Source: Octopus vulgaris (Eukaryota). Taken from it: a DNA stretch of 64,000 nucleotides. Each line of letters starts with the position of its first letter. The stretch's first letter is position 1. Shown here in pieces: positions 2,591 through 61,199 of this stretch. Under the pieces are notes generated by a model. The model made no database searches. It was not told where the DNA came from and saw nothing but the letters and a program-made list of their open reading frames with translations. A program made the translations under genes and the position numbers. The stretch covers positions 24,242,001 to 24,306,000 of the forward strand of contig OX597842.1 of the NCBI GenBank assembly GCA_951406725.2, read 5' to 3'.

Positions 2591-3644
2591 ACAACAGCAA
2601 CAGCAGCAGCAACATCAATCCAGCAGCCGCCTGTCTGTTATAAATATTTTTAGTTTAATCATATGGGCTTAGTAGCTTCAATATATCGAATCACACCTTA
2701 ATTGCCCTAATTATTCCTGAATTAGTCTTGTCGAGATACTAGTGTATCCCTCTGCTAACCTATGGATCGGTGTATTTCGTCATCGACGTTGTATTGGGCT
2801 CCTCGCATAAATATTTAATTCTCAACAAACCACTTCAATTAGCTATGAATGAGAGTCATACAAAGGAACTGCTAGCTTTGTTGCTGTTGTTTCGCTACAG
2901 GCCTTCTTTAGTTGATAAGATCAATGATCAAAAGCTTCCAGCCATGACTGCCGCAACTCCTTTTATTTTCGTAGATCACATTTCTCCAAACTGATCTACA
3001 ATAAATGTTTGTTTTGAAGTTATATAATTTGTTGATATTATTTAATATACAAAATACTTGGTGTTAGATGCTAAGATACAGTGATGAGAGATAAACGAAG
3101 GGATAAGTTTGTTCATTAAATGCTAATGATGGTGGTTATCTAGTGAATATGCGATGGAGCCATTGAGTAGATGGTAACCATGTGAGAGAAGGAGTGTGAA
3201 GGAAATATATTTCCCAGTCACTGATGAAATGTTAAAATAAGACAATGGTAGGAAATTCTCAAGAGAGCTGAACAGCGGAAGGTCTTCGGAGAGGAAACCC
3301 TACTCAGGCAAGATCCAGAGGTAATGCGTTGACATATAAGGTGAATTGAAGGAAAAGCTTATAACATCAGATGAACATATTTTGGAACCACATCTCAAAG
3401 CAAAATAAGGCGAACACATGCACTTGCGGGTGTGTATGTGTGTGACCTGAGTCAATGCATGTCTAGGAGTCAGGAGTCAATGCAAGGGTGGCACAAAATT
3501 AGAATGTTCTGCTTTATATTAGGGATAAACCAGAAGTCCCTGACTGCTATGTCATCTGGAAGTTTATAGGAAGCTTCTTAAATCTCATTTTCATTTTGCT
3601 TTCCTGTCTGACCGCCAGGCATCACTCAGGTTTTAATTATACAA

Positions 3645-3830
3645 GGCGGCGAGCTGGCAGAAACGTTAGCACGCTGGGCGAAATGTGTAGCCGTAATCTT
3701 CTGAGTTCAAATTCCGCTGAGGTCGACTTTGCCTTTCATCCTTTCGGGGTCTGTATAACGGACTTAACCCGTGCGTCTGTCCTTGTTTGTCCTCTCTGTG
3801 TTTAGCCACTTGTGGGTAATAAAGAAATAA
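3645..3830 (+). mobile_element. SINE family 2 (GTCGACTTTGCCTTTCATCC domain)
   Basis: Head GGCGGCGAGCTGGCAGAA, tail CTTGTGGGTAATAAAGAAAT. Copies at 9285-9465(-), 43255-43635(-, rearranged) and 59655-59890. Confidence 0.75.
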
Positions 3831-5501
3831 GTTATACAAGGTTCCCTTGATTGTGTCGAGAATGATGAAAATTTGTGTGGGACTCTGAGCGGGTATTGCC
3901 CTGATTTTGGCAAAATCTGATGCAGATTCTCTGCTAAACTTTCTATCATACTCAATGTGACAATCACACGCTACACACCTTCCTTCCAAGCATTGCTGCA
4001 AACAGCAGAAGAGAGCTAGAATGTTAACACTTAGTGTGAATGGACAGCAGAGTTTAGAGTCAATCTTTCCCAAGTGGCTTCACTCTATGTATCTTAGCTT
4101 CGTTGCTATAGCAACAGTCTGCATATATGTATGTATATATGTATGCCATTGTTCAGTTTTATTTCAAAACTACTTGCCAATTTCTAACCTAAATCCAAGG
4201 ATCCTTCATTGGAATTTCACCATCAACAACAGAGTATGTAGGTCTTTTCGGTTTGAACAGCAGTTTTTAACATAATTTCTAGGTGACTAAACACTTTTAA
4301 ACTTCGTATACTGGTAGAATGTGTTTATAAAACATCTTTTTCTCCTGGCTTTATTGAGAAAATTCTACGGTTTGTAAGATATTTGTTGTCTTTTTTCTTC
4401 AATTTCAAGCAATCAATGACGTCTATTGAGGTGAAAACATTGTGCCGTATGAATATGTCCCTCGTTTAAGAAACAGATTGGGTTTATTTACATTTGTGAA
4501 GAAAAAAAGATACCCTTCCCCCCACCCTAAACCCTAAAAGAGATTGAAATGCAATGGATCGATACTAGGGTCATAATTATGGGTGACAATTTCATATGAC
4601 ACCGCTAGAAAAACTGCCATTCAAACCGAAAAGATCCAATACATTTCTAAATATCTCATAGAGATTTATGCAGTAGTGGTACGATAAAGATACCCTTCCC
4701 CCACCCCTAGCCCAAATAGATTGTAATGCAAAGATCGATACTAGGGTTATAATTATGGGTGACATTTTCATGACACCGCGACAAAAAAATCCCATTTTCT
4801 GTAGCAGTGTCGTATGAAATTGTCACCCACAATTATAACCTTAGTATCGATCTTTGCATTTCAATCTATTTTAGGGTTAGGGGTGGGGGAAGGGTACCTT
4901 TTTTTTCTTTGCAAATGCAAATAAACCCACTCTGTTTCTTAAACAAGGGACATATTCATACAGCACGGTATGTTTTGACTCCAGATGGACGTATTTGATT
5001 GGTTAAAATTGCCAAAATGCTCAATTTTAAAGTGGAAATATGTTACAAACTATAGAATTTTCTCAATAAAGCCAAGATAAAATGATGTTTTATAAACACA
5101 TTCTACCAGTATACGAAGTTTAAAAGAGTTTAGTTAACTAGAAATTGTGTAGACATATGCCATTCAAAAGGAAAAGCTCTGCACAAACTTGTACGAAGTA
5201 CAGACATCTGCGTGTTAACATACATCTCAGGAAAAACAGCCTTCTCATATTCAATACGATTGGTGGCACCCTGGTAGTACATATCATTGTGGAAAACGTA
5301 AAACCACCCATAATTGTTATATATATATTAATTACCAGAGTGACTCACGACTTGACTGGTTATAGACGCCTGGTAATATTTACGTAAAGTGGTCCCGCTG
5401 CGCGCCATCGCGCTAGCTAGTTGTGACTAGTCGATCCTACGACTACCTAGCGCGAGTGCACGTATGCAAATTAATAGATGCGTACATGCGCAAAGCACGT
5501 A

Positions 5502-9190: not shown

Positions 9191-9569
9191 CACAAAAAGA
9201 AAATGACTCTCCCCAGACACAACAGAATATGCTTCAATACACGAATTCATATAAAGAATCTTGCAAACCAAATAGAATTAATATCTGTTTCTTTATTACC
9301 CACAAGGGGCGAAACACGGACGGGACAAACAAGGACAGACTAACGGATTAAGTAGTTTACATTGACTCCAGTGCGTAACTGGTACTTAATTTACCGACCC
9401 CGAAAGGATGAAAGGCAAAGTCGACCTCGGCGGAATTTGAACCCAGAACGTAACGGCGGACGAAATTAATATCGATGTCAGACTAGCAACATTGAATACT
9501 TTCATTATTGTCTGGAGTTCCGAATTTTCCAGGTTCTTCTGCTTTCACTAAAAATAAAATATGTACGAT

Positions 9570-10821: not shown

Positions 10822-12465
10822 TGAGGCAAAAGCAGAAGTACTTGGTCAAAGATATATCTTTGCATTTGGATTTTGTTGACATGGAGAAAGCTTTTGACAG
10901 AGTCCCCTACTCTATTATTTGGTGAGCAATAGAGAAGCTAAGTTAAGTTAATTTTTTGGCTCAAAAAGCAAAAAGCAAGGCCATGTAGGGGGACATGGAG
11001 TTATGTACAGGGAGGGTGGTCATACAGAGTTCAGCCATTTGTGGTCAAGAGGGTCTTTGAACCGAGTGGTCGTCGGCATCTTCACTATCTCATCCGGCAG
11101 CTTATTCCACGGATCCGCAACCCGGACTGAGAAAGCCCCTCTCCTTCGATTGAGATGAAATTGTCGTAGATAGAGCTTTTTGGAGTGACCCCGCAGTGGA
11201 CGCTCTGGAGCAGGAGTGAAGAACAGCTCTTTCGAGAGGTTACACTTTCTGCTTATGATGTTGTGAGCAAGAATGAGATCACCACAGCATCGTCATTTAG
11301 GGAGAGATGAGTGGTTGGTGAGACATGCAAAAGCCATGTATAGGGATGCTGTCAGTAAGGTAAATGTCACCAATGAGTATAGCATGAATTTTAGTGTAAA
11401 AATAGGAGTCCACCAAGGATCGTTTTTCACCCCACTCTTGTTTATCATAGTCCTGCAAGCAATAACAGAGGAATTTAAGATTGGCTTCCCTTGGGATCTC
11501 TTCCAAGCTGATGACCTTCTTATTATTGCTGAATCGCTACCACAATTAGAGAACAAATTTTGGATCTTTTCCTTTTGAACGGCACTTTGTAACATAATTT
11601 CTAGTTAACTAAACACTTTTAAACTTCGTATACTGGTAGAATGTGTTTATAAAACATCACTTTTTCTTGGCTTTATTGAGAAAATTCTATAGTTTGTAAG
11701 ATATTTCGTCTGAATATTCGAATAATTTGGCAATTTTAACCAATCGCTGGAGTCTATTTAGGTAAACACTCCATGCTGTATGAATATGTCCCTCCTTTAA
11801 GAAACAGATTGGGTTTATTTACATTTGTGAAGAAAAAAAGATACCCTTCCCACACCCCTAACTCTAAAATAGATTGAAATGCAATAGATCGATACTAGGG
11901 CCATAATTATGGGTGACATTTTCATTTGACACCGCTAGAAAAAATCCCACTTTCTGTAGCGGTGTCGTATGAAATTGTCATCCATAATTATGGCCCTAGT
12001 ATCGATCTATTGCATTTCAATCTCTTTTAGATTTAGGGTTCGGGGTGGGGGAATGGTATCTTTTTTTCTTCACAAATGTAAATAAACCCAATCTGTTTCT
12101 TAAAGGAGGGACATATTCATTATGCACAGAATGTTATTTACCTAAATGGAGAGCAGTGATTGGTTAAAATTGCCGAAAGATCTTACAACCTACAGAATTT
12201 TCTCAATAAATCCAAGAAAAAATGATGTTTTATAAACACATTCTAATAGTATACGAAGTTTAAAAGTGCTTAGTTAACTAGAAATTGTGTTGAAAAGCGC
12301 CGTTCAAAAGGAAAAGATCCCGAATTGAAAAACTATACAGTAAATTTAGCAAAGACCAAAGACAGATCTTGTCAGAGAGATGGCCCTGCTCGGCATGTAG
12401 AAAAGATGTCAGGAGAAACTCCATGTAGTGTACCCAGTACAAGCTATGGACACATATTGTTCATT
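10822..12465 (+). mobile_element. RTE-type LINE fragment with nested CR1/L2 3' end (about 10940-11295, minus) and MITE
   Basis: FVDMEKAFDRVP and GVHQGS..PLLFIIVL..QADDL motifs; inverted copy at 58675-59431. Confidence 0.8.
11562..12320. mobile_element. Palindromic GGATCTTTTC-family MITE (about 760 bp)
   Basis: The two halves are reverse complements around about 11950. Absent from the paralogous site near 58815. Confidence 0.88.
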
Positions 12466-16375: not shown

Positions 16376-17079
16376 AATGGTTTTTATTGCTATAATTCCG
16401 TTTACGAAATGTGAATTATAATGAAAAAAACCCGAATAATGTCAAAAAATACAAAAGTATATGCTGACTACTTATTTTCAGGTTTTTTGCTACTCTTACG
16501 ATCTCCTCTTTAAACCTCTAGTATCGTTCTTCGTTTATTTCTTTTTAAGGTTAAGGTGAGAAACCCGTGGGTTGTTTTCTAACCAATACCCAAGAAATTA
16601 TTTTTCTCTTAGCTTTATTGAGAAAATCCTACATTTTGTAAGATATTTGTTGTTTTTTATTTCTGCAATTTCAACTAATAAATGACGTCTATTGAGGTGA
16701 AAACATTCTGTGCCGTTTGAATATGTACCTCGTTTAAGAAACAGATTGGATTTATTTACATTTCTGAAGAAAAAAAAGATAACCTTTCCTCAACTCCTAA
16801 CCCTAAAACATATTGAAATGCAATAGATCGATACTAGGGTCATAATTATGGGTGACAATTTCATATGATGCCGCTAGAAAAAACTGCCGTTCAAACGGAA
16901 AACATTCGATGGGAGTAAGACACACGTGTCTGTTCCCCACACCCACCACTATCTGACAAGTCGTGTTGCTTTCTTTGACATTGTGGTTCGGTACGCGGAG
17001 GACGTAAAAGTAGCAATAAAAATGTCAGCTTTGTATCATTTGTTATTATTTGGATTTTTTCTTACAATTCACATTTTCA

Positions 17080-20404: not shown

Positions 20405-21170
20405 CACTGTAATATTTACCTTGTTTTAAAAAGAAAAATGATTTGATATACAGCCTTTAAATACATACCATAAATCTTTGAGTGTAGTCCGCCCTTGAGT
20501 CTAATACTCAAGGGAATTTATAGGGGGCTGTACCTTTGAAAAACCTAAACCTTGTGTATAATATGCACCCCTTCTCTTACCTGAGTCAAGGAGGTCTGTA
20601 TAACGTCCTTGGTTTGTAAAAATGTATATGGTAACATCCTTTCTTATTATTGTATATATAACATAATGCAAACGTGTAGCTTTTTTGTGTATTTTGTTTG
20701 CAGAAAATAAAGAAAAAATGTTTAATAAATGTTACTTACTGCAAGTTATGGATGATTCTTTTATAACTTCATTGCTTTCAGGCTTAGCTTAAGGTATTTT
20801 CACGCCCGACATCACAAAATGCGTCTGAATAAACATTGCCGGACAGCAAATACAGACTCGGACATGCATGCATCTATTAGTTTGCATACGTGCACTCGCG
20901 CTAGATAGTCGTAGGATTGACTAATCACAACTAGCTAGCACGATGGTGCGCAGCGGGACCACTTTTCGTAAATAGTACTCGGCATCTGTAACCAGTCAAG
21001 TCGTGAGTCACTCTGGTAATTAATATATATATAACAATTATGGGTGGTTTTACATTTTCCACAATGATAGGTACTACCAGGGTGCCACCAATCGTATTGA
21101 ATATGAGAAGGCTGTTTTTCCTGAGATGTATATTAACACGCAGACATCTGTACTTCGTACAAGTTTGTGC

Positions 21171-21946
21171 GGATCTTTTCCTTTTGAACGGCATATGTCA
21201 ACACAATTTCTAGTTAACTAAACACTTTTAAACTTCGTATACTGGTAGAATGTGTTTATAAAACATCATTTTTTCTTGGCTTTATTGAGAAAATTCTATA
21301 GTTTGTAACATATTTCCACTTTAAAATCGAGCATGTCGGCAATTTTAACCAATCAAATACGTCCATTTGGAGTCAAATCATACCGTGTTGTATGAATATG
21401 TCCCTCGTTTAAGAAACAGAGTGGGTTTATTTACATTTGCAAAGAAAAAAAGATACCCTTCCCCCCTCCCTAACCCTAAAATAGATTGAAATGCAAAGAT
21501 CAATACTAGGGTTATAATTATGGGTGACAATTTCATACGACACCACTACAGAAAATGGGATTTTTTTCTAGTGGTGTCAAATGAAAATATCACCCGTAAT
21601 TATAACCCTAGTATCGATCTTTGCATTTCAATCTATTTTAGGGTTAGAGTTAGGGGTGTGGGAAGGGTATCTTTTTTCATCGCAAATGTAAATAAACTCA
21701 ATCTGTTTCTTAAACAAGGGACATTCATACAGCACGGTATGTTTTGACTCCAAATGGACGTATTTGATTGGTTAAAATTACCAAAATGCTCGATTTTAAA
21801 GTGGAAATATGTTACAAACTATAGAATTTTCTCAATGAAGCCAAGAAAAAATGTTTTATAAACACATTCTACCAGTATACGAAGTTTAAAAGTGTTTAGT
21901 TAACTAGAAATTGTGTTGAAAACTGCCGTTCAAAAGGAAAAGATCC
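21171..21946. mobile_element. Palindromic GGATCTTTTC-family MITE with 8-bp TSD
   Basis: TSD GTTTGTGC / GTTTGCGC. Truncated paralogs at 4686-5180 and 42096-42610. Confidence 0.88.
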
Positions 21947-22954
21947 GTTTGCGCTCGATATAGACAGGTGATATAAACAGTCAACCAAGTCGGGGGCCAA
22001 CTTGGTATTTAAAATACTAACAAACAGAAAGATTAAAACAAAACACGAAGGTGAAGAATCAAGTGTGAAAAATCAACAGAGACAACGGTGAACTACAACG
22101 CAGTGTGTTATTGTCATGGTAACAAGCCGTTAATGCCACGCTGTCTGTTGATTGGCTAAAATTACCCATATTTTCCTAACTTTAATGCCAAATTACATCA
22201 GATTCTTTAATTTACGAGAGAAAGTAATGGGTTGATCGTAATCAAAATTCAATGTTGCATCGATAAACCAAAATTGAAAACGATCTAAGCAAAATTAATG
22301 ATGGGGAGGGATCATTTTGCAAATAAGAAAGACTATACCAAAACATTTTAAATCTAGTAGCTATACCATCCGACTCTTTTGCTGCAGAACAAGGATCTTT
22401 TCTGTTTGACCAGCAGTTTTTTAAAATAATTTCCACGTAACTAAACACTTTTAAACTTCATATACTGGTAGAATGTGTTTATAAAACATCTTTTTCTCTT
22501 GGCTTTATTGAGAAAATTATATAGTTTGTAAGATATTTGTTGTTGTTTGTTTCTGCAATTTCAACTAATCAATGATGTCTATTCTATGCTGTATGAATAT
22601 GTCCCTCGTTTAAGAAACAGATTGGGTTTATTTACATTTGTGAAGAAAAAAATATACCCTTCCCCCCACCCCTAACAAAGATTGAAATGCAATAGACGAT
22701 ACTAGGGTCATAATTATGGGTGACAATTTCATATGATACTGCTAGAAAAAACTGCCGTTCAAACGGAAAAGATCCGATGGGAGTAAGACACACGTGTCTG
22801 ATCCCCACACCCACCACTATCTGACAAGTCGTGTTGCTTTCTTTGACATTGTGGTTCGGTACGCGGAGGACGTAAAAGTAGCAATAAAAATGTCAGCTTC
22901 TAGTTTGTATCATTTGTTATTATTTGGATTTTTTCTTACAATTCACATTTTCAA

Positions 22955-41066: not shown

Positions 41067-44000
41067 GGTATTTCTCCTGCATCTGTCTTACCAGAAAAAT
41101 ATAGCATCAGTGGTGCTTTTCCTTGGCATGAACCCAAACTGCATCTCATCTAAACTGACTCTCTCCCTAATTAGTTGATAATTATTTACTTTGTGTGAAA
41201 AAATTATTTACCTTGTTTTAAAAAAATAAAATTATTTGATATGCAGCCTTTAAATACATACCATAAATCTTCGAGTGTAGTCCGCCCTTGAGTCTAATAC
41301 TCAAGGGAATTTTTAGGGGGCTGTACCTCTGAAAAACCTAAACCTTGAGTATAATATGCACCCCTTCTCTAACCTGAGTCAAGGAGGTCTATATAACGTC
41401 CTTGGTTTGTAAAAATGTATATGGTAACGTCCTTTATTATTATTGTATATATAACATAATGCAAACGTGTAGCTTTTTTGTGTATTTTGTTTGCAGAAAA
41501 TAAAGAAATAACAGTAATAACGTTTAATAAATGTTGCTTACTGCAAGTTATGGATGATTCTTTTATGACTTCATTGTTTTCAGGCTTAGCTTAAGGTATT
41601 TTCACGCCGACATCACAAAATGCTTCTGAATAAACATTGCCGGAGAGCAAATAGAGACTCGGACATTGCTTAGAAAATAATTTTCATTTTAACCTCATAT
41701 ATAATCCGCACCTGGGATTTTGACCTTTAAATTTTTTTGGGGGGAAATGTGGATTATACTCGAAGATTTACAGTACGTGCTTTGCACATGCACGCATCTA
41801 TTAATTTGCATACGTGCACTCGCGCCAGGTAGTCGTAGGATTGACTAGTCACAACTAGGTAGCGTGATGGCGTGCAGCGGGACCACTTTTCGTAATTAGT
41901 ACTCAGCGTCTGTAACCAGTCAAGTCGTGGGTCACTCTGGTAATTAATATATATATAACAATTATGGGTGGTTTTACGTTTTCCACAATGATATGTACTA
42001 CCAGGGTGCCACCAATCGTATTGAATATGAGAAGCCTGTTTTTCCTGAGATGTATATTAACATGCAGCCATCTGTACTTCGTACAAGTTTGCGCTGATCT
42101 TTTCCTTTTGAACAGCATATGTCAACACAATTTATAGTTAACTAAACACTTTTAAACTTCGTATACTGGTAGAATGTGTTTATAAAACATCATTTTTCTT
42201 GGCTTTATTGAGAAAATTCTATAGTTTGTAACATATTTCCACTTTAAAATCGAGCATTTTGGCAATTTTAACCAATGAAATACGTCCATTTGGAGTCAAA
42301 ACATTCTGTGCTGTATGAATGTGTCTTCGTTTAAGAAACAGAGTGGGTTTATTTACATTTGCGAAGAAAAAAAGATACCCTTCCCCCACCCCTAACCATA
42401 ACTCTAAACCTAACCCTAAAATAGATTGAAATGCAAAGATCGATACTAGGGTTATAATTATGGGTGACAGTTTCATACGACACCGCTACAGAAAATGGGA
42501 TTTTTTTCTAGCGGTGTCAAATGAAAATGTCACCCATAATTATAACCCTAGTATCGATCTTTGCATTTCAATCTATTTTAAGGTTAGGGGTGGGGGAAGG
42601 GTATCTTTATCGTACCACTACTGCATAAATCTCTATGAGATACTTAGAAATGTATTGGTTCTTTTCGGTTTGAACGGCAGTTTTTCTAGCAGTGTCATAT
42701 GAAATTGTGACCCTAGTATCGATCTATTGCATTTCAATCTCTTTTAGGGTTAGGGGTTGGGGGAAGGATATCTTTCAGTTACCTAGAAATTATGTTAAAA
42801 AGTGCCGTTCAAACCGAAAAGACCTACATACTCTGTTGTTGATGATGAAATTCCAATGAAGGATCCTTGGATTTAGGTTAGAAATTGGCTCTTTCTCTAT
42901 TGGCAAGTAATTTTGAATTAAAACTGAACAATGGCATACATATATACATACGTACGTACATACATGCAGACTGTAGCAACGAAGCTAAGATACACAGAGT
43001 GAAGCCACTTGGGAAAGATTGACACTAAACTCTGCTGTGCATTCACACTAAGTGTTAACATTCTAGCTCTCTGCTGCTGTTTGCAGCAATGTTTGGAAGG
43101 AAGATGTGTAGCGTGTAATTGTCACATTGAGCATGATAGAAAGTTGAGCAGAGAATCTGCATCAGATTTTGCCTAAATCAGGGCAATACCTGCTCAGAGG
43201 CCCACACGAATTTTCATCCTTCTCGACACAATCAAGGGAATCTTGTATAACTTATTTCTTTATTACCCACAAGGGGCAAAACACCCAAAGGAAAGACGCA
43301 TGGGTTTAGTCCGTTATATCGACCCCAGTGCGTAACTTTCGACCCCGAAAGGATGAAAGGCAAAGTCAACCTCGGCGGAATTGGAACTCAGAACGTGATG
43401 GCAGACACAATACGTATTTCTTTACTACCCACAAGGGGTTAAGCAGAGGGGACGAACAAGGACAGACAAACAGAGTAAGTCGATTACATCGATCCCAGAG
43501 CGTAACTGGTACTTATTTAATCGACCATGAAAGGCAAAGTCGACCTCGGTGGAATTTGAACTCAGAAGATAGTGGCAGATGAAATACGGCTACGCATTTC
43601 GCCCAGCATGCTAACGTTTCTGCCAGCTCGCCGCCTTGTATAACTAAAACCTGAGTGTCCCCTGGCGGTCAGACAGGAAAGCAAAATGAAAATGGGATTT
43701 AACAAGAGTAATCTCCCTCGACCTTCTTAAATACTTTAGAAGCTTCCTATAAACTTCCAGATGACATAGCAGTCAGGGACTTCTGGTTTATCCCTAATAT
43801 AAAGCAGAACATTCTAATTTTGTGCCACCCTTGCGTTGACTCCTAGACATGCATTGACTCAGGTCATGCACATACACACCCGCAAGTGCATGTGTTCGCC
43901 TTATTTTGCTTTGAGACGTGGTCCCAAAATATGTTCATGTGATGTTACAAGCTTTTCCTTCAATTAACCTTATATGTCAACGCATTACCTCTGGATCTTG

Positions 44001-46075: not shown

Positions 46076-47046
46076 GGGGACATGGTAACTCTCATCACAA
46101 CAGGTGCCATTCTAACCAGATGCCCATCATAAATCCCTGCTTGGTGTCTGGTAAGAACAAGACCATGAAAACCTGCTCTACAGAATGATTTAGCAAAAAA
46201 TAAGTATCATCCGTTGCAGGGATTGAGCAGGGATGTGTTTGAACCATAGGTAGAGTGGGGCATTAGGCTCTTGAAAAATATTTCCCACTCTACACCCAAA
46301 ACTGTGACAAACAGCAATAAGCCTCCAGCTAGTGCCAGAATATGTGGGCAGTAGCACAAAGGGTGCAGATCCTGGGATCCCTGAGTGTGTCCAGCAGAGG
46401 ATAACTGATCATGGATGGGAACTGGAGTGTAATACATTTGTGTCAAGATAATATATCCTCAAGAAAACAGAGCAAATTAATATAATCAATATTGTTTGAA
46501 TAAAAAACACAAATCGTAATTAGTGAGTTGATGCAAATGAGGAAAATGTGAAAAATGAATTTATTTTGTAAAAAGTAATACATTTGCTGTATTTTATTCA
46601 GCAGGACATCTGTTTTATCATTAATATTGTTATTGATCAATATGAATAAGTATATGTTTAGTTAAGGTAGATTATTGAGAGAATGATTTAGCACAGATTA
46701 CACAGTCATAAGAATCTTCTCCTGTATGAATATGTTTGTGTTTAGTTTATTATTTCTCTCTATGAAAGAATGACTTGTCCCAGATGTCACAGTGATATGA
46801 TTTCTCTCCTGTATGAATGTATTTGTGATGAGTTCAATATTGTTCCACAGAGAATGATTTACCTCAGATATCACAGCAATAGAGTTTCTCTCCTGTATGA
46901 ATACGTTTATAAGTATATACAGCATATTCCTGAGAGAATGATTTGCTGCAGACATCACAGTCACATAGTTTCTCTCCAGTATGAGCAGACTTGTAATTAA
47001 TTAAATATTTTCTTAAACGGAATAATTTACTGCAGATACTACACTG

Positions 47047-48268
47047 CTATGGTTTGTCCCCTGTATTAATGCATTTGTGTCTATTAAAGTACCTCTTCTG
47101 AGAGAATGATTTACCACAGATATAGCACCGATATGGTTTCTCACCTGTATGAACTGATTTGTGAGAATCAAGGTAACTTTTTTGAGAGAATGATTTACCA
47201 CAAATATCGCAGTGATGTGGTTTCTCTCCTGTATGAATGTGTTTGTGAGAATCAAGGGTACTCGTATAACAGAATGATTTACCACAAATATCACAGTGAT
47301 ATGGTTTCTCTCCTGTATGTATGGCTTTGTGTTTAGTAAGGTTATATTTTTTAGGGAATGATTTACCACAGATATCACAGTGATATGGTTTCTCTCCAGT
47401 ATGAACGACTTTGTGATAAGAAAGGGCAGTCTTTTGAGAGAATGATTTACCACAAATATCACATTGATATGGTTTCTCTCCAGTATGAGTGTATTTGTGA
47501 TGAGTGAGGCTATATTTCTGAGTGAATGATTTACCACAAATATCACATCGATATGGTTTCTCTCCTGTATGAATGGATTTGTGAGAAGAAAGGTGACTTT
47601 TTTGAGAGAATGATTTACCACAAATATCACATCGATATGGTTTCTCTCCTGTATGAATGGATTTGTGAGTAGTGAAATAACTTTTTAATGAAAAGGATTT
47701 ATCACAGATATCACACTGATATGGTTTCTCACCTGTGTGAATATATTTGTGAGAATTAAGGCTACTTTTTTTGAGAGAATGATTTACCACAAACATCACA
47801 CTGATGTGGTTTCTCTCCTGTATGAATGTGTGTGTGAGAATCAAGGGAACTTCTATGAGAGAATGATTTACCGCAAATACGACATTGATTTGGTTTCTCT
47901 CTTGTATGAATGTATTTGTGTTTAGTAATATTATATTTTGTAGAGAATGATTTACCACAGATATCACAGTGATATGGTTTCTCTCCACTATGAACAGATT
48001 TGTGATAAGAAAGGACAGTCCTTTGAGAGAATGATTTACCACAAATATCACACTGATATGGTTTCTCTCCAGTATGTGTGTATTTGTGATGAGTAAGGTG
48101 ACTTTTTTGAGAGAATGATTTACCACAGATATCACAATGATATTGTTTCCCCCCTGAATGAATGAATTTGTGAACAGTGAGATTTCCCTTATTAGAAAAA
48201 GTCTTTTTACAGATATCACATTGGTCTGATAACTTTTCTCTTTCTTTTAACATCTCCAGACTATTCAT
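47047..48268 (-). CDS. C2H2 zinc-finger gene A2, 14 fingers, single +1 frameshift in a homopolymer (pseudogene or sequencing error)
   Basis: ORFs 47762-48268 and 47047-48219 join into one finger array if the T7 run at 47766-47772 is T6, as in the equivalent finger near 8232. Acceptor at 48605-48606. Confidence 0.8.
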
Positions 48269-50744: not shown

Positions 50745-50852
50745 GAATTAACATCGATGTCAAACTAGCAACTTTTAAAACTTTTTACTTTTGTTTGGAG
50801 TTTCGAATTAGCCAGGTTAATCGGCTTCTGCTAAAAAATAAAATATATATTA

Positions 50853-51068
50853 CATCTTACCTGTTTTGATAAGTAGATCATATGTTACGATAATTAGATT
50901 AATGTGAATTAATGTTAATTACACAAAAGAGCAATTAACGGGAATATAGTATAAAGACACTCTAAAAGTCGGCATGGAAAGTCAACGAAACGAACTAAAA
51001 ATCTTGATGTTGTATACCTCGTATTACTACACATTTGTCGGATGATAAAACTGAGTTGGTAAATTTTT
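50853..51068 (-). promoter_or_regulatory. Promoter / exon 1 module (A2)
   Basis: Homologous module; donor CAG|GTAAGA at 50860-50859. Confidence 0.65.
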
Positions 51069-51472
51069 AATGTTTTATTATTGCTATAATTACTACTTAA
51101 AATTTTGAATTGTAAGAAAAAATCCAAATGATGGCAAAAGATACAAAACTAAAGCTTATTTTCCAGTCGATTGCTACTTTTACGCTGTTCTGTCGTCGAA
51201 CCCGTAAGTTACAGGGACGGAAAGAAACGAATCCAGCTTAGCAGAGTGATGTTGGATGAGGATAGGGGGAAACATGCATGCATCAGTGTTCGAAAACCAT
51301 TTTTGGTTTGTTTATATTCCAGTAACTTAGTTGTGCAATGGAAGAGGGCGGGGGTAAAGAATACGCACACCACCCGTTTACGGTGTAAGCCTAACCCATG
51401 CGTCGCAGGAGGCGGAAGAGGTCAAGCAGGACGCACGTGTGGTCATCGACGAAGCGACAGTTCGAGCAGAGA

Positions 51473-53645
51473 TGAGAAATCGCACGTTGACGTCGGTTGT
51501 GTTTTTTTTACGCTCGTGAAATTTGGTAAAAAAGAACAAAAAGTGAGAGGGAAAATTGTTGTTGTGGAATTTTGTTTCGTTTGTTGATGCGGTTTCGCGT
51601 TACACTGGTTCTACGCGTTGCACTGTTTCTGTTCGGGCGGCCGTTTTCGGTCTGTCAGACGGAGGGATATGGACGACCACTCCCTAGTGGCGGAGTCGGA
51701 GGAAGAATGGATATTTGAGACCTTGTCGGAGACATCGACCTCTGAAGACGAGCAAATCGGTGATGTAAATAATGTGGAGATAAAAAACAGGAAAACGTAC
51801 GCAGGAGTTGCAAAAAAGAAGACGGCACAGGAAAAGGAAATAAACCTAGAAAAATTGCCAGGTTTCTAGAGGTATATGAGGAAGGACAGCGGTGAGGTGG
51901 AACTAACACCACCACCAAAGAGAAAAGAATGGTTGGAGAAAAGGACCATCATATACAGGGTATTCGCAAGCGGAACGAAAAAGATAGAAGAGTGAATTAT
52001 AATGAAAAAACCCCGAATAATGGCAAAAAATACAAAAGTATATGCTGACTACTTATTTTCAGGTTTTTTGCTACTCTTACGATCTCCTCTTATGGAGTGG
52101 AGAAATGAGGCGCTAAGAAGAACGGAAGAGGAAATCGAATTTCTGTCGAGAGGTTCAAAATATGGTACTGTAGTAGTACAGTTCAAAAGTGAGAAGGCAG
52201 CAAGGAAGATGGCGGCGAAGGCGGTGAAATCCGAGAAGGTAATACTTTTGCCTACGTATTTAAATAGAAAAATCACAAGAGTAAGGGTCGAGGGAATAGC
52301 CCCAAACGTTGAAGCCGAGTGGATTGTGGCGGCTATAATTAGCGGCCACGAGGATGAAGTGGACATCCTCCATGCCTCGGTTAAGACCGAGGGCTGGAGA
52401 GGCGTGACAGTGGAACTAAATGTGCAGGCAGAGAACGATGTACTGGTGGACCTAACAGAAAACATCAGATTGGGAGACGTGATCATGAGAGTGTGGGTGG
52501 AGGGCAGGGCGCCCAGGTGCTATAAGTGTGGCCTGAGGGGTCACATAAGAGCCTACTGCCCTCCCCCACAAAAAGAAACAGTGATCCAGGAAGAGGAGGA
52601 AACGGAGCCGGAAAAAGTTGAAGCGGAAGAACCTGAGGAGGAGAAGGAAATCCAAACTGAGTGGGAAGACGTACGGAAAAAAAGAAAAAGAAAGAAAGTG
52701 AACTTTATTGAATCCCAATCCACCCCAACACCACCCGCACCCTCTGAGCCCCATCCTTCCCCTGCAAACAAAGAGCCCACCCATTCCCCACCTACAAGAA
52801 AACCTAAAAACGCAGACACACAGATGATACAAGAGCCCAAGCCCCATACTTTATGTTTTATAAAAAAGGAAGACAATGTGAAGCCGACAAGTATCTTTGG
52901 TGAAAAATCATGGTATGAGGGAGAAGATGGAAGTTACATGGCGATGAAAGGTGAAATAATGGACGCAAGGAAGATTTTGTCGGAAAAAAAGGGTGTAGAA
53001 GCGATTGAGGTGGAATTTTCGGATGAGAAGATAAAAGAGTGTGAAGAGATATTTGAGATAGTATTAGGAAAGGAGGGGCTTTTGATTGGAGATGATAGGT
53101 GACGAAGGGTTGTGAAGGACAGGTAAGTGATGCTGGCGGATGGGGCCGTTAGCATCGCTTTCATATTACCATTTTTTCATTTAAAATTCATTTTTCATAA
53201 TATTAATTATAATGTTCTATGTCCCCTCTCCGTCGCCCCTTGTGGGTAATAAAAAATCAGAGATGAGAAATCGCACGTTGACGTCGGTTGTGTTTTTTTT
53301 ATACGCTCGTGAAATTTGGTAAAAAAGAACAAAAAGTGAGTGGGAAAATTGTTGTTGTTGTGGAATTTTGTACGTTTGTTGATGCGGTTTCGCGTTACAC
53401 TGGTTCTACGCGTTGCACTGTTTCTGTTCGGGCGGCCGTTTTCGGTCTGTCAGACAGAGGGAGATGGACGACCACTCCCTAGTGGAGGAGTCGGAGGAAG
53501 AATGGATATTTGAGACCTTGTCGGAGACATCGACCTCTGAAGACGAGCAAATCATATTATTTTCATATTATTAATTATAATGTTCTATGTCCCCAATGTT
53601 TTGTAATGTCCCCTCTGCATCTTCCCTTGTGGGTAATAAAAAAAT
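51473..53645 (+). mobile_element. ORF1/Gag-only retroelement with A-ORF-B-A-B repeat layout
   Basis: Direct repeats of about 290 bp (51473-51758 and 53264-53552). Two 3' tails ending CCCTTGTGGGTAATAAAAAA. CAGAGA at all three junctions. No RT. Confidence 0.8.
51669..53102 (+). pseudogene. L1/Tx1-like ORF1 (Gag-like) protein with CCHC zinc knuckle
   Basis: One frame from ATG 51669: acidic N-terminus, TYAGVAK, knuckle CYKCGLRGHIRAYC, basic KKRKRKK. It is interrupted only by TAG 51867-51869 and a 99-100 bp insertion; 52002-53102 remains open. Confidence 0.8.
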
Positions 53646-54089
53646 CAGAGACGAGGAAGCGACAGGACGTGTCAAATTCGTAAGAGACCTCGGATCTTCG
53701 CCGAGGTAAGGCCTTTTGTATTTCTTCCTCCCGTTGCTTCTCCTTCTGTTGTCCTCTTCATCCATCACACTACACATACATACTTGTCCTTCTCATCAAG
53801 CAAACTCTCTTGAATTTGGATTTAATGAAAATAATATTGAATAAGACTTTGCGAGTCAGCTTTACATAATTTCTTGGGTATTGGTTAGAAAACAACCCAC
53901 GGGTTTCTCACCTTAACCTTAAAAAGAAATAAACGAAGAACGACACTACAGGTTTAAAGAGGAGATCGTAAGAGTAGCAAAAAACCTGAAAATAAGTAGT
54001 CAGCATATACTTTTGTATTTTTTGCCATTATTCGGGGTTTTTTCATTATAATTCACATTTCGAAAACGTAATTATAGCAATAAAAACCA

Positions 54090-54295
54090 TTAAAAATTTA
54101 CCACTTCAGTTTTAGCATCCGACAAATGCGTAGTAATAGGACGGATACAATATTCAGATTTCAGTTCGTTTCGTTGACGTTCCGTGTCGATTTTTCTAAA
54201 GTGCCTTTAAATTATATTTCCCGCCAGATTGATGCTTTCTGTAATTAACGTTAATTCATAGTAAACACTAATTTATTTATCATCACAGGTAAGAT
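54090..54295 (+). promoter_or_regulatory. Putative ZNF promoter / non-coding exon 1 module (B2)
   Basis: Contains TTTACCAC..TTAGCATCCGACAAA..GTTCGTTTCGTTGACGTTCCGTGTCG and a strong donor CAG|GTAAGA at 54289. The module recurs upstream of every ZNF exon in the gene's orientation. Confidence 0.7.
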
Positions 54296-54500
54296 ACAAT
54301 ACATGTTTTGTTTGTGGTAAAAGCCGATGACCCTGGTTAATTGGAAACTCCAGACAATTGTGAAAGTTTTGCATGTTGCTAATCTGATTTCGATATTAAT
54401 TCCATTCTCCGTTAAACTTCTTGGATAATGCCAAGAAAATCTAATCTTAATTTTTACTTGGTATGTCGATGAAAAAGCACCAAATTTTTGATGTCTTTTA

Positions 54501-54888
54501 GGCGATGTTACGGTATAAGTACCGGATACATTTAAAAAAAAGTGGGGTTTTCTTTATATATGGAGGGTTAGGGTTAGGGTTTCTGTTAGGGGTGGGAGAA
54601 AAGGGTTTCTGTTATAAATCATTAAAATCCTTAAAAATGTTAAGCCCGAAGGCCGCGGCCATGGTGGGGCATCACCGCTGGAACTCATATCTTCAGAGAT
54701 GTAAACAAAGTCACGTGTGTACATATACCGAAGGATCGCCACATACCCTAACCCTAACACAAACCCTAGCCCTCACAGAAACCCTAACTTTAACCCTCAC
54801 CCTAACTCCCCATATATAAAAATAACACTTTTTTGAATTGTATCTGGTACTTCCGAAAGTACACCGGTACTTATACCGTAAGATCGCC
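54501..54888. mobile_element. GGCGAT-ended MITE with TTAGGG-like repeats
   Basis: TIR GGCGAT(C/G)TTACGGTATAAGTACCGG; TSD (G/T)TCTTTTA. Copy at 15622-15966; short relatives at 30893-31048 and 37482-37618. Confidence 0.8.
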
Positions 54889-56069
54889 TTCTTTTATTAC
54901 AGTAGACATTCCATTTGTTACTTGTGTCCATTCGAAGCTGTCTATCGCTTTATTATAGAGGTATAACTTGCTACGTATCACTATTTGCTGTTTATTTTGT
55001 CAAAATGATTGGCTTTAATAGTTATCTCTATTCTCTCTTTTACTTGTTTCAGTCATTTGACTGTGGCCATGCTAGAGCACCACCTTTTAGTCGAGCAAAT
55101 CGACCCCAGGACTTATTCTATTCGGTCTGTTTTGACGAACCACTAGGTTATGGGGACGTAAACACAGACACATAAACATACATATACACATATATACGAC
55201 GGGCTTCTTTCCATGCTTCCTCAGATTCGCCAACACTACACCTGATTTTCTCCCCTCCATACACACGCAAACATGTATCTGACTCATACACTGTTCGCTT
55301 TCCAGACATTTGTACATTACTGCATATACTTTATACGCACTTTAGACAAGTTGTGGTGCACCTGAGCACTGTATACAGTAATTTCATTATTGTTATTTTA
55401 AAAGTCGTGAACACAACCTAATTTCATTAATAGACCTGTTCAGCCAGGGATGATTCCGGGCTAAACAACAGTGACTTATCACATTTCTGAAGATAGTAGG
55501 AAGTTATTGTCCAATATTTTGTAGTTTAACATTTTACGTAATATCTGAAGGCAAAGGAACAGAAGTCTGTGTATAGAGACTAATTATTCGGGTTAAGGTT
55601 TATATAAACAGTTTATTATTATGAAAATGTAGTAATATTTTTTATAGTTGAATCTCTGCTTTTCAAGTCTTTCCTATATCTTCTACTGTTTCTGTGTCAT
55701 TTCAGAATATGAGATGTTAGTGGTATAAAGGAGTTTTTACATCAGATACATCATGAATAGTAATCATCATTTGAAGACTAATGGAAGATATTATAAATAA
55801 TATATATAACCCTGTTTCTATTACAAATCTATGGTGAATAACTGTGAAATATTTCTTTGGAATTAATACGAACGTTTGTTTTCTTCATTGCCAGTATTTT
55901 ACATTCTGTTTGAATTTGGAAAAATCTGTGAAGGTCTTTGTATTATCTTCAGATATTCGAGAAGATCAGATTTGCTGTATATATAGCAGTAGAAGTATTT
56001 GAATCAACAAAGACATTTATAAAGAAGAAAAGAAAAATATATTTTGAGGTCGTATACTGTAGAACCATA

Positions 56070-57626
56070 ATGAATCCGCCGGAGATGACAAGAGAAAGAG
56101 AAAAATTATCAGACCCATGTGATATCTGTAAAAAGACTTTTTCTAATACAGCAAATCTCACTGTTCACAAGTGTATTGATCCAAGTGGAAAGCAATATCG
56201 CTGTGATATCTGTGGCAGATCATTCTCTAAGAAAGATCATCTTACTCATCACAAATACATTCATACAGGAGAGAAACCATATCAGTGTGGTATTTGTGGT
56301 AAATCATTCTCTCATAGGAGTAGCCTTACTTGTCACAAATACATTCATACAGGAGAGAAACCATATCACTGTGACATCTGTGGTAAATCATTCTCCCAAA
56401 AAAGCCCCCTTAATTCTCACAAATATGTTCATACAGGAGAGAAACCATATCAATGCGATATCTGTGATAAATCCTTTTCACTAAGGAGTGATTTAGCTAA
56501 ACACAAACGTTCACATACTCATGAAAAGCCGTATCACTGCGAAATTTGTGGTAAATCATTCTCTCGAAAAAGTCACCTTGATTCTCACAAATCCATTCAT
56601 ACAGGAGAGAAACCGTATCACTGTGACATCTGTGGTAAATCATTCTCTCAAAGAAGTCACCTTGATTCTCACAAATACATTCACACAGGAGAGAAACCAC
56701 ATCACTGTGATATATGTAATAAATCCTTTTCAATAAGAAGTTCTTTAATTAAACACAAACTTATTCATGCTCATGAGAAGCCATTTCATTGTGATATTTG
56801 TGGTAAATCATTCACTCACAAATGTAACCTTGATTCTCACAAATTCATTCATACAAGAGAGAAACCACATCACTGTGATATCTGTGGTAAATCATTCTCT
56901 CATAACAGTAACCTTACTAAACACAAATACATTCATACAGGAGAGAAACCATATCACTGTGATATCTGTGATAAATCCTTCTCATTAAAAAGTCATTTAA
57001 CTACTCACAAACTTACACATACAGGTGAGAAGCCACATCACTGTGATATTTGTGGTAAATCATTCCCTTATAAGAATAGCCTTACTTATCACAAATCAAT
57101 TCATACAGGAGAGAAACCATATCACTGCAATATCTGTGGTAAATCCTTTGTAGTGAGAAGTAATTTAACTGCTCATGAACTTACTCACACTAATGAAAGG
57201 CAATTTCAATGTGATATCTGTGGTAAATCATTCTCTGGAAAAAATACCCTTAATAGACACAAATACATTCATACAGGAGAGAAACGATATCACTGTGATA
57301 TCTGTGATAAATCATTCTCTCATAAAAGTAATTTTAATAGACACAAATACATTCATACAGGAGAGAAACCATATCAGTGTGATATTTGTGGTAAATCATT
57401 CTCTCAAAAAGGTAACCTTGATTCTCACAAATCTATTCATACAGGAGAGAAACCATATCACTGCAATATCTGTGGTAAATCCTTTGTATTAAGAAGTTAT
57501 TTAACTGCTCATGAACGTACTCACACTGATGAGAGGCCATATCAGTGTGATATTTGTGGTAAATCATTCTCTGGAAAAAGTAACCTTACTAAACACAAAT
57601 GCATTCATACAGGAGAGAAATCATAG
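56070..57626 (+). CDS. C2H2 zinc-finger protein B2, 518 aa, 18 fingers (first degenerate)
   Basis: ATG at 56070 ([11 protein letters not shown]), intact array, ends TGEKS-TAG. Acceptor at 55704-55705. Inverted paralog of B1. Confidence 0.92.
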   Translation: MNPPEMTREREKLSDPCDICKKTFSNTANLTVHKCIDPSGKQYRCDICGRSFSKKDHLTHHKYIHTGEKPYQCGICGKSFSHRSSLTCHKYIHTGEKPYHCDICGKSFSQKSPLNSHKYVHTGEKPYQCDICDKSFSLRSDLAKHKRSHTHEKPYHCEICGKSFSRKSHLDSHKSIHTGEKPYHCDICGKSFSQRSHLDSHKYIHTGEKPHHCDICNKSFSIRSSLIKHKLIHAHEKPFHCDICGKSFTHKCNLDSHKFIHTREKPHHCDICGKSFSHNSNLTKHKYIHTGEKPYHCDICDKSFSLKSHLTTHKLTHTGEKPHHCDICGKSFPYKNSLTYHKSIHTGEKPYHCNICGKSFVVRSNLTAHELTHTNERQFQCDICGKSFSGKNTLNRHKYIHTGEKRYHCDICDKSFSHKSNFNRHKYIHTGEKPYQCDICGKSFSQKGNLDSHKSIHTGEKPYHCNICGKSFVLRSYLTAHERTHTDERPYQCDICGKSFSGKSNLTKHKCIHTGEKS

Positions 57627-59431: not shown

Positions 59432-61199
59432 GGTTTGGAAGCAAGATCTGGATTGAAAAACCATACAGTAAATTTAGCAAAGACCAAAGACAGATCCTGT
59501 CAGGGAGATGGCCCTGCTCGGCATGGAGAAAAGGGCATCCAGCTGTAGAAACACTGCCAGATCAGACTGGAGCCTGGTGCAGCCTCCCAGACCCCGGTCA
59601 AACCGTCCAACCCATGCCATCAAGGAAAGCAGACATTAAACGATGATGATGATGCAGAAACGTTAGCAGGCCGGGCGAAATGCTTTGCGGTATTTCGTCT
59701 GTCATTATGTTCTGAGTTCAAATTCCGCCAGGGTCGACTTGCCTTTCATCATTTCGGGGTCGATAAATAAAGTACCAGTTTCCCTTTGCCTGTCCATGTT
59801 TGTTCCCTCTGTTTAGCACTGGGGTCGATGTAATCGACTTAATCCCTTTTTCTGTCCTTGTTTAGCCCCTTGTGGGCAACAAAGAAATGGATGATGATAA
59901 TGATATAATTAACGGAAGATACAAGAATATTTATTGATCACTGCAATTGTTTCAACACATCTTGCTTCGATCCTTTATGAGTGGAATATTGAAGAGTTGC
60001 TTTATGAGTATCCAACAGTGTAGATGTGTCTTTTCAGGTGATTACAAGATATATTTCATTAAAATAACGTCTGTTCTGCAAAAGTTCTTGTTATGTGTTT
60101 GTTTTATAATTTGTTGATATTATTTGATTTACAAAACACAAGGTATTAAATGTTTAGATGGCCGTTTGCCAGCCTCCTCTGGCCCGTTGTGCCGGTGGCA
60201 TGTAAAAAGGACCATCCGATCGTGGACGTTTGCCAGCCCCATCTGGCAACTGTGCCGGTGGCACATAAAAATCACACACAACACTCACGGAGTGGTTGGC
60301 GTTAGGAAGGGCATCCAGCTGTAGAAACACTGCCAGATCAGACTGGGCCTGATGCAGCCTTCTGGCTTCCCAAACCCCAGTTGAACCACCCAACCCATGC
60401 TAGCATGGAAAACGGACACTAAACGATGATGATGCTGTGAATGTAAGACAAAGAGTTGGCACAAAAGAACTACCATTCGAGCCTTATTGATGCCAGTACC
60501 ATCTGGCTGCCCCCCACCTTCCGTGCCAGTCACACTTGAAAAGCACCCACGACACTTGTTGTTGTTAAGCAACAAGACAGGTAAGGGTGATTAGGTGATG
60601 GTCTAGGGCTCATGGGCAGGAGACCCCAGACCTTGGGAAAAAAAAAAACTTTGGTCATCTTGTAGTCGAGAGCTCTTCGTTGACGCCCGACACCACTGAG
60701 AGGTTGGCCTCGAAGTCATTGGAAACGGTGATCTCCAGCTCCAAATCCTTAGACGGCCCCGCTACACTCTCAGAGTGGTTGGCATTAGGAAGGGCATTCA
60801 GTTATAGAAACCAGGCCAGGACAGACTGCAGTCTCATTGCGGCCTCCTGGCTTGCTAATCTTCAGTCAAACCATCCAACCCATGCCAGCATGGAAAGTAG
60901 ATGTTTAACGATGATGATGATGTATAATGATATATATATATAATTATGATAGATTGTTACCCTCGGAGTGGTTGGCGTTAGGAAGGGCATCCAGCTGTAG
61001 AAACTCTGCCAGATCATAATTGGAGCCTGGTGCAGTCATCTGTCTCGCCAGCCCTCTGTCAAAATCGTCCAACCCATGACAGTATGGAAAGTGGATGTTA
61101 AATGATGATGATGAACCATTTACATTTTTACAATAGATATTTATAGGGAAGTTCCATATTGAATAATTCTAACCAATTGCATTGTAAACTACAGCAATT

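Follow-up and report, generated by a model that had tools for sequence, protein, structure and literature searches.

We analysed a 64,000-nucleotide window of the Octopus vulgaris genome (assembly GCA_951406725.2, contig OX597842.1, forward-strand positions 24,242,001 to 24,306,000; all coordinates below are positions in this window). At 51467-53651 the window holds a putative retroelement made of two head-to-tail units, unit 1 at 51473-53257 (~1.8 kb) and unit 2 at 53264-53645 (~0.4 kb), with one open reading frame (ORF) in unit 1. The site is flanked by C2H2 finger arrays at 46642-48220 on the minus strand and 56202-57608 on the plus strand. An initial annotation of this DNA had placed it between two divergent zinc-finger promoters; the finger arrays do diverge around the site, but for the promoters only these arrays were located. 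The two units and their borders are composed as follows.

51467-51472, plus strand: left target-site duplication (TSD), CAGAGA (empty-site joints in the public runs X1, X15 and X16)
51473-51758, plus strand: repeat A1, a 196-nt 5' leader and the first 30 ORF1 codons (repeat alignment)
51669-53102, plus strand: ORF1-like gene with two predicted RNA-recognition motifs (RRMs), a CCHC knuckle, a charged/proline linker and a C-terminal domain; broken here
53125-53160, plus strand: predicted 15-bp hairpin in the 3' untranslated region (UTR) (z -4.1, 0/200 shuffles)
53192-53257, plus strand: tail B1, with AATAAA at 53248 and a short A tract; its last ~40 nt resemble the 3' end of a repeat like a short interspersed nuclear element (SINE)
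53258-53263, plus strand: middle CAGAGA, between the units (sequence)
53264-53553, plus strand: repeat A2, head of the internally deleted second unit (repeat alignment)
53554-53645, plus strand: tail B2, with AATAAA at 53635 (microhomology joint to A2; repeat alignment)
53646-53651, plus strand: right TSD, CAGAGA (sequence and empty-site joints)

The A-ORF-B-A-B layout given in the initial annotation was borne out by the repeat alignments. A1 and A2 shared 280 matches, with 5 substitutions and 3 gap events (BLAST: 96.3% identity over 297 columns, E = 8e-137), and the part of A that is coding comprises the first 30 codons of the ORF. For B1 and B2 (53560-53645) there were 61 matches, 5 substitutions and two indels of 19 nt and 1 nt. 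The joint between A2 and B2 shows a 2-nt microhomology and lies just 3' of the position of the hairpin, which unit 2 lacks. CAGAGA was found at 51467, 53258 and 53646, as the annotation had it, and thus at all three junctions; because the motif occurs only 26 times on the plus strand of the window (0.0004 per site), its presence at three exact junctions is not due to chance. A search of the window returned no further copy of A or of the ORF.

The reading frame and its relatives

The ORF contains a single CCHC knuckle at about 52518-52559, which the Pfam zf-CCHC model matched below its cut-off (E = 0.09). AATAAA (53248) follows the stop after 146 nt, with all three frames closed in between, so that there is no room for a reverse transcriptase (RT), as had been claimed from an estimated distance of about 150 bp. 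The passage from ORF1 to the 3' end was also contiguous, with no ORF2, in contigs of runs X1 and X20.

A structural model of 52092-52571 (160 residues) had a mean predicted local distance difference test (pLDDT) score of 93 and an RRM-like topology. Foldseek searches with this model placed tandem-RRM proteins in the top rows, none of them at E≤0.001, and the model of a full-length relative (P0020) gave 13 PDB matches at E≤0.001, headed by IMP3 RRM12, Raver1, Sxl and U2AF65. The Atlas look-alikes of a second relative (P0023) included ZCCHC3 RBD1/RBD2 clusters (score 0.90); the Pfam ZCCHC3 RBD models were not among the families listed for the ORF or its relatives. A VIA structure search with the 160-residue model retrieved ferredoxin-like folds (best Z 7.6) and was not discriminating. 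In the viral structure library the 50 matches listed included RRM proteins and no Gag capsid. From these models we predict that the ORF encodes two RRM domains and one CCHC knuckle, that is, a ZCCHC3/Tx1-like type I ORF1 of a long interspersed nuclear element (LINE). The initial annotation had proposed a comparison of the protein with L1/Tx1 ORF1 and with DIRS/Ngaro Gag; the protein models as RRM-RRM-CCHC and not as Gag. The combination of RRM and CCHC is that of type I LINE ORF1 and is consistent with Tx1 elements (PMC5203782). Neither the ORF nor the scanned relatives matched Transposase_22, the Pfam family of type II ORF1.

An exhaustive protein search found 285 relatives at E≤0.001, the closest being an Octopus sinensis gene model (50% identical); family members are 21-50% identical in protein. 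Where the 30 relatives that were looked up carried a species name, it was Octopus sinensis, vulgaris, bimaculoides or Argonauta only; the rest had none. None of 148 scanned homologues, from the best 150 of 285 matches, contained an RT or endonuclease Pfam domain, and the two outside the joint Pfam scan are knuckle-repeat proteins, also without RT. A weak search for longer, RT-fused relatives found none. The contigs of Logan/ENA homologues mostly measured 1.1-3.5 kb, with three far longer, which is too indirect to serve as evidence. A metagenome scan gave 3 loci, two of which (L001 and L003) are unrelated LTR-type elements. A C-terminal domain of ~60-80 residues, at about 52840-53099 in the window, recurs in five relatives (P0006, P0016, P0020, P0023 and P0025); its model in P0020 (residues 321-380) is of good confidence, it has no Pfam match, and the window's own version found no Atlas match. 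One further relative, P0053, is an ORF1 fragment that lies in the gene model of a Helitron helicase and was probably inserted there as a nested element.

Public-run contigs, the empty site and the shared tail

Half or more of the window's words were held by 20 of the 24 listed public runs (9 studies, three organism labels). Four runs (X1, X15, X16 and X20), all as contigs, were aligned to the window at 85% likeness, and the best 32 of 2922 contig pieces were listed. X1 and X20 are guessed to be RNA runs, and missing cover of the flank in X20 was not used as evidence. Depth is given as summed contig depth relative to the unique flank and is not a copy number. Two further features flank the element.

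51347-51466, plus strand: left half of a multicopy host sequence (depth about 57-63x unique flank)
53652-53790, plus strand: right half of the same host sequence; the GT at 53706-07 is a likely splice donor (depth about 41-64x)

Contigs in three of the four runs (X1, X15 and X16) joined 51466 to 53646 and 51469 to 53649, skipping exactly 2179 nt, with sides of 24-62 letters. Since these empty-site joints leave one CAGAGA, the motif is the target-site duplication, host sequence that was doubled on insertion. X1 contigs stop and start exactly at CAGAGA and reach locus-specific flank, which suggests that they represent an empty allele of this locus, although they may come from a near-identical paralogue. 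The left junction is crossed by X20 contigs (51347-51695). In record 29 of the same run 53117-53191 is joined directly to 53560-53660, giving UTR, a B2-type tail, CAGAGA and 9 flank letters that differ from the start of A; this contig shows a single unit without B1-A2, and may be either the ancestral form or a collapsed tandem.

Contigs of X1 and X20 depart from the reference after 53705, at GT 53706, as spliced RNA would, and the sequences joined there, which differ from one another, were not found in the window; nor did the window hold a second copy of 51347-51466. On the strength of the depth and of these departures the host sequence is multicopy and probably exonic, with the element inserted in sense orientation. 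The host sequence (~260 nt) may be a shared first exon or promoter module, or an unrecognised repeat; as a zinc-finger first exon it is an unproven candidate.

In the two DNA runs depth was 28-78x over the RRM region and 87-93x over the hairpin block (bin 53120-53230), values of the same order, compared with 7-9x in the B1/A2 junction bin and 1.2-2.8x over the C-terminal part of the ORF. The high-depth block of the hairpin starts 12 nt past the ORF stop. Near-identical contigs of X1 and X20, and a diverged one of X16 (9 differences in 130), continue from the ORF end into the hairpin UTR. In X15, X16 and X20 the block is also joined to other upstream sequences, all of which carry TGA at the window's distance of 12 nt from it. 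A B2-type tail directly followed the 3' UTR in contigs of all four runs, and an X15 contig matched A2 (53280-53410) with 0 substitutions. No contig among the 32 of 2922 pieces listed spanned the B1-CAGAGA-A2 junction.

The tail of the element recurs in SINE-like repeats of the window.

43250-43640, minus strand: SINE-like repeat, ~230 nt, as a tandem dimer; its 3' end matches B
3640-3832 (plus strand), 9280-9466 (minus strand) and 59654-59890 (plus strand): other SINE-like copies

Over their final ~40 nt, B1 and B2 aligned with the 3' ends of all five SINE-like units, a fit that 0-3 of 500 shuffles equalled. Common tails are often found in SINEs and their partner LINEs (PMC3747384, PMC4494074); since the tails are shared here in the same manner, the element and the SINE-like repeat are, by analogy, likely mobilised by the same RT. 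All four SINE-like insertions with the shared tail have TSDs of 10-13 bp that are unrelated to CAGAGA. A resemblance of the hairpin to the SINE head was rejected, 22-244 of 500 shuffles being as good. ARAGORN detected no tRNA, and Rfam no ribozyme or snRNA in element or target. The SINE-like repeat may be the tRNA-derived octopus OK/OR SINE. A site paralogous to that of the 43-kb dimer, at 3.6 kb, holds a single copy.

Two lesions break the ORF in the window.

51867-51869, plus strand: premature stop (in one X1 contig; absent from all covering X15, X16 and X20 contigs)
51992-52091, minus strand: polymorphic insert of 100 nt, an inverted copy templated by 53957-54056 in place of 7 nt (net 31 codons)
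53957-54056, plus strand: donor of the inverted insert (100% identical; a paralogue at 16411-16510 is 98% identical)

The inverted insert also carries the second stop of the ORF, and a 31-residue gap lies opposite it in all homologues that span this place. An insert-free joint, 51990 to 52091, was present in all four runs. X1 has in addition a contig with the insert, including its left junction (51961-52091, 0 differences). X20 contigs hold an uninterrupted frame with 4 differences in 1362 nt from the window ORF. Because X1 carries the stop at 51867 and insert-free joints occur in all four runs, the premature stop likely preceded the insert. The segregating inverted insertion, copied from 1.9 kb downstream, is a clean case of template-switch repair.

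Origin of the two units

We read unit 1 as a non-autonomous LINE derivative of the HAL1/HeT-A kind that encodes only ORF1, unit 2 as its internally deleted sister, and the A-B-A-B order as two units around a 6-bp target duplication, with a probability of about two in three. That the family as a whole lacks RT is, on indirect evidence, probable to the same degree. A HAL1-like element with an internally deleted second unit was one of the options in the initial annotation, and it fits the ORF1-type protein, the TSD and the LINE/SINE-type tail. In the mechanism that we propose, RNA would arise from the leader of the element or by read-through from the host exon and be coated by ORF1p. The ORF2 protein of a putative autonomous helper LINE would recognise the shared 3' tail and nick the target, and the RNA would be copied by target-primed reverse transcription, leaving the TSD. 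Later, the haplotype would have gained the stop and then the repair-type inverted insertion.

The two units differ at 10 of 351 nt, compared with 4 of 1362 between the window ORF and the X20 contigs (Fisher p = 5e-5; p = 7e-4 without one dinucleotide), and unit 2 is therefore not a recent local copy. We give about an even chance to the possibility that unit 2 derives from a sister copy, or from an allele that had diverged, placed at this duplicated target, and a smaller one, near one in three, to an older local duplication. Tandem copies that sandwich the TSD, formed by sequential insertions, are described for SINEU-3 (PMC4494074).

Several points weigh against our reading. Both flanks were read for a single full-length copy only, and in X20 record 29 no more than 15 letters follow the tail, below the 31-letter bar for flank bridging. 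The sequences found to lead into the UTR block are majority strings of 30 letters (agreement 0.6-0.72) and may in fact be the ends of ORF2s; the depths that bear on the family are summed over contigs and do not count copies. Very close ORF1-only sisters must be few, because depth over the ORF C-terminus is so low. The helper LINE was not found, and Tx1 membership requires an RT, which the element lacks. In O. vulgaris 13 L1-Tx1 families have been active recently, with an average length of about 5.4 kb (421 insertions, 2.29 Mb; PMC13282606); these are possible two-ORF parents, and may be either parents or helpers of the element.

Such families, full-length in size and active (PMC13282606), would suit a one-off event in which a two-ORF Tx1-like LINE lost ORF2 at this locus and a local duplication at the TSDs, involving another template switch, produced unit 2. 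The local templated inversion on the same haplotype, the microhomology at the A2/B2 joint and the near single-copy depth of the ORF C-terminus point the same way. We nevertheless consider a one-off loss improbable, and indirect evidence speaks against the condition named in the initial annotation as refuting its reading, namely that other genomic copies are ordinary two-ORF LINEs. The diverged X16 contig also passes from ORF end to UTR, the other ends keep the distance from stop to hairpin, depth over the UTR is of the same order as over ORF1, and RT and endonuclease domains were absent from all 148 homologues; the units also differ more than the ORF does between samples, so that a local duplication would have to be old. 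A narrower form of our own reading, which we consider less likely than not, is a target-specific family whose Tx1-type endonuclease cuts CAGAGA in a host exon of ~40-60 copies, the tandem being two sequential insertions. The target is indeed multicopy, both units have the same 6-bp border, and both tail variants are found in other contigs. Many Tx1 families hit multicopy targets, and tandem insertions with a TSD between them are described (PMC4494074). Against the site specificity for CAGAGA that the initial annotation had proposed, the four SINE-like insertions with the same tail have other TSDs, and where B2 ends one X1 contig departs from the reference and continues differently, although it may be a SINE-like copy.

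The second option of the initial annotation, a non-autonomous split-repeat element of Ngaro/PAT type in which B1-CAGAGA-A2 would imitate a circle junction, with CAGAGA as recombination core, was not upheld and appears very unlikely. The order A1...B1 A2 B2 fits it (PMC9210276), and an empty site with one CAGAGA is as compatible with a recombination core as with a TSD. Identical repeats are expected, however, and those of the A and B pairs are not (5 substitutions with 3 gaps and 5 substitutions with a 19-nt indel, respectively), although decay could explain part of this. The protein is RRM-RRM-CCHC and not Gag-like, the end of A2 lies within coding sequence and at a microhomology, and the tail has AATAAA and resembles that of a SINE; that a split-repeat element should carry a LINE-type ORF1 is itself unlikely. 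The X20 contig runs from 3' UTR to B tail into flank without A and thus lacks B1-A2, and the B1/A2 bin has 7-9x depth against about 90x for the UTR. DIRS and Ngaro are reported as almost absent from cephalopods (PMC10294476). We give equally little credence to a domesticated, immobile family of ZCCHC3-like host genes (retrogenes). Its ZCCHC3-like domains, the annotated gene models in four species and the X20 contigs of uninterrupted frame that cross the left junction from host sequence (in a run guessed to be RNA) speak for such a family; the TSD with its empty site, the high summed depth, the SINE-like tail and the segregating ORF lesions speak against it. It is no more probable that unit 2 or the inverted insert is an artefact of assembly. 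None of the pieces listed spans B1-CAGAGA-A2, as an artefact would have it, but the insert is present in a contig of X1, A2 is matched by one of X15, and A2/B2 differ from A1/B1.

A much broader extension of the ORF1-only reading, which we regard as doubtful, is an octopod-wide, long-lived ORF1-only lineage that would use the RT of the octopus SINE through the shared tail, possibly with a cross-clade helper, and home to a transcribed first exon of ~50 copies whose promoter expresses ORF1.

The surroundings of the site are themselves repetitive. A ~440-bp module lies inverted (75% identical) on both sides of it, at 50745-51184 and 53967-54402, with paralogues at 9464, 16065, 17003, 24077, 28813, 34489 and 36436, and is probably part of the duplicated zinc-finger unit. 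Inverted arms with CCCTAA/TTAGGG-like units and a GC-rich core occupy 54500-54889 and are repeated near 15.6, 30.9 and 37.5 kb, as a module that resembles a promoter or a miniature inverted-repeat transposable element. Many copies of a ~400-bp repeat, often paired in inverted orientation, are spread over the zinc-finger cluster (4240-5180, 11565-12320, 21170-22780 and others).

If our reading is true, an octopod family with a Tx1/ZCCHC3-type ORF1 represents another independent origin of ORF1-only LINE derivatives. RT-based surveys overlook such elements, and annotation labels them as 'uncharacterized' or 'CCHC-type' genes. Through the shared tail, the LINE behind the mobilisation of the SINE-like repeat could be approached directly. 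The several forms of the locus (empty, uninterrupted, with stop, with stop and inverted insert, and tandem) suit the study of repair-templated insertions in a zinc-finger cluster.

Comparison with known systems

ZCCHC3 resembles the octopus protein, by Atlas features, in its two RNA-binding domains and knuckle. It is a single-copy host gene, whereas the octopus element is multicopy, with a TSD and an empty site. Ngaro and PAT share the repeat order A1...B1 A2 B2, but have identical repeats and ORFs for gag, RT/ribonuclease H and tyrosine recombinase (PMC9210276), in contrast to the single RRM-RRM-CCHC ORF described here. In the bipartite non-coding LINE derivatives RIME, NARTc and Bov-A, as in unit 2, a 5' end is joined to a 3' end. 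These are reported from RTE, Ingi, Vingi and R2 only (PMC5786205); unit 2 differs in lacking the hairpin. LINEs of the Tx1 clade and the Tx1-mobilised SINEU-3 are alike in type I ORF1 and in tandems that sandwich the TSD, and they frequently prefer multicopy targets (PMC5203782, PMC4494074), a common but not universal trait for which the octopus element, with its multicopy target, is a candidate. Membership of the Tx1 clade is set by RT phylogeny, however, and the octopus element has no ORF2; type I ORF1 is shared with other clades and is not diagnostic.

HeT-A forms head-to-tail arrays. Together with Ag-Sponge it belongs to the ORF1-only bipartite LINE derivatives, HeT-A from Jockey and Ag-Sponge from CR1, whose protein is thought to multimerise with that of the helper (PMC5786205). 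Both come from other clades and hosts, and the insertion in the octopus, which carries a TSD, lies interstitially and not at a telomere. The clades for which ORF1-only derivatives have been listed are L1 (HAL1), Jockey (HeT-A) and CR1 (Ag-Sponge) (PMC5786205, PMC5753468). Our literature search found no report of an ORF1-only octopus element, although the repeat libraries (Repbase, Dfam and the Zenodo library of PMC13282606) were outside the search and may hold it; the available text of PMC13282606 names no ORF1-only family. The mammalian HAL1 is alike in being a non-autonomous LINE derivative that encodes ORF1p only and keeps the ends of its LINE (PMC5753468, PMC5786205). It differs in its derivation from mammalian L1 and in its type II ORF1 (Transposase_22), the octopus element having a type I ORF1 and a tail shared with a SINE-like repeat. 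In its proposed mechanism the element is thus like HAL1, HeT-A and Ag-Sponge, but it is not a HAL1 in the strict sense.

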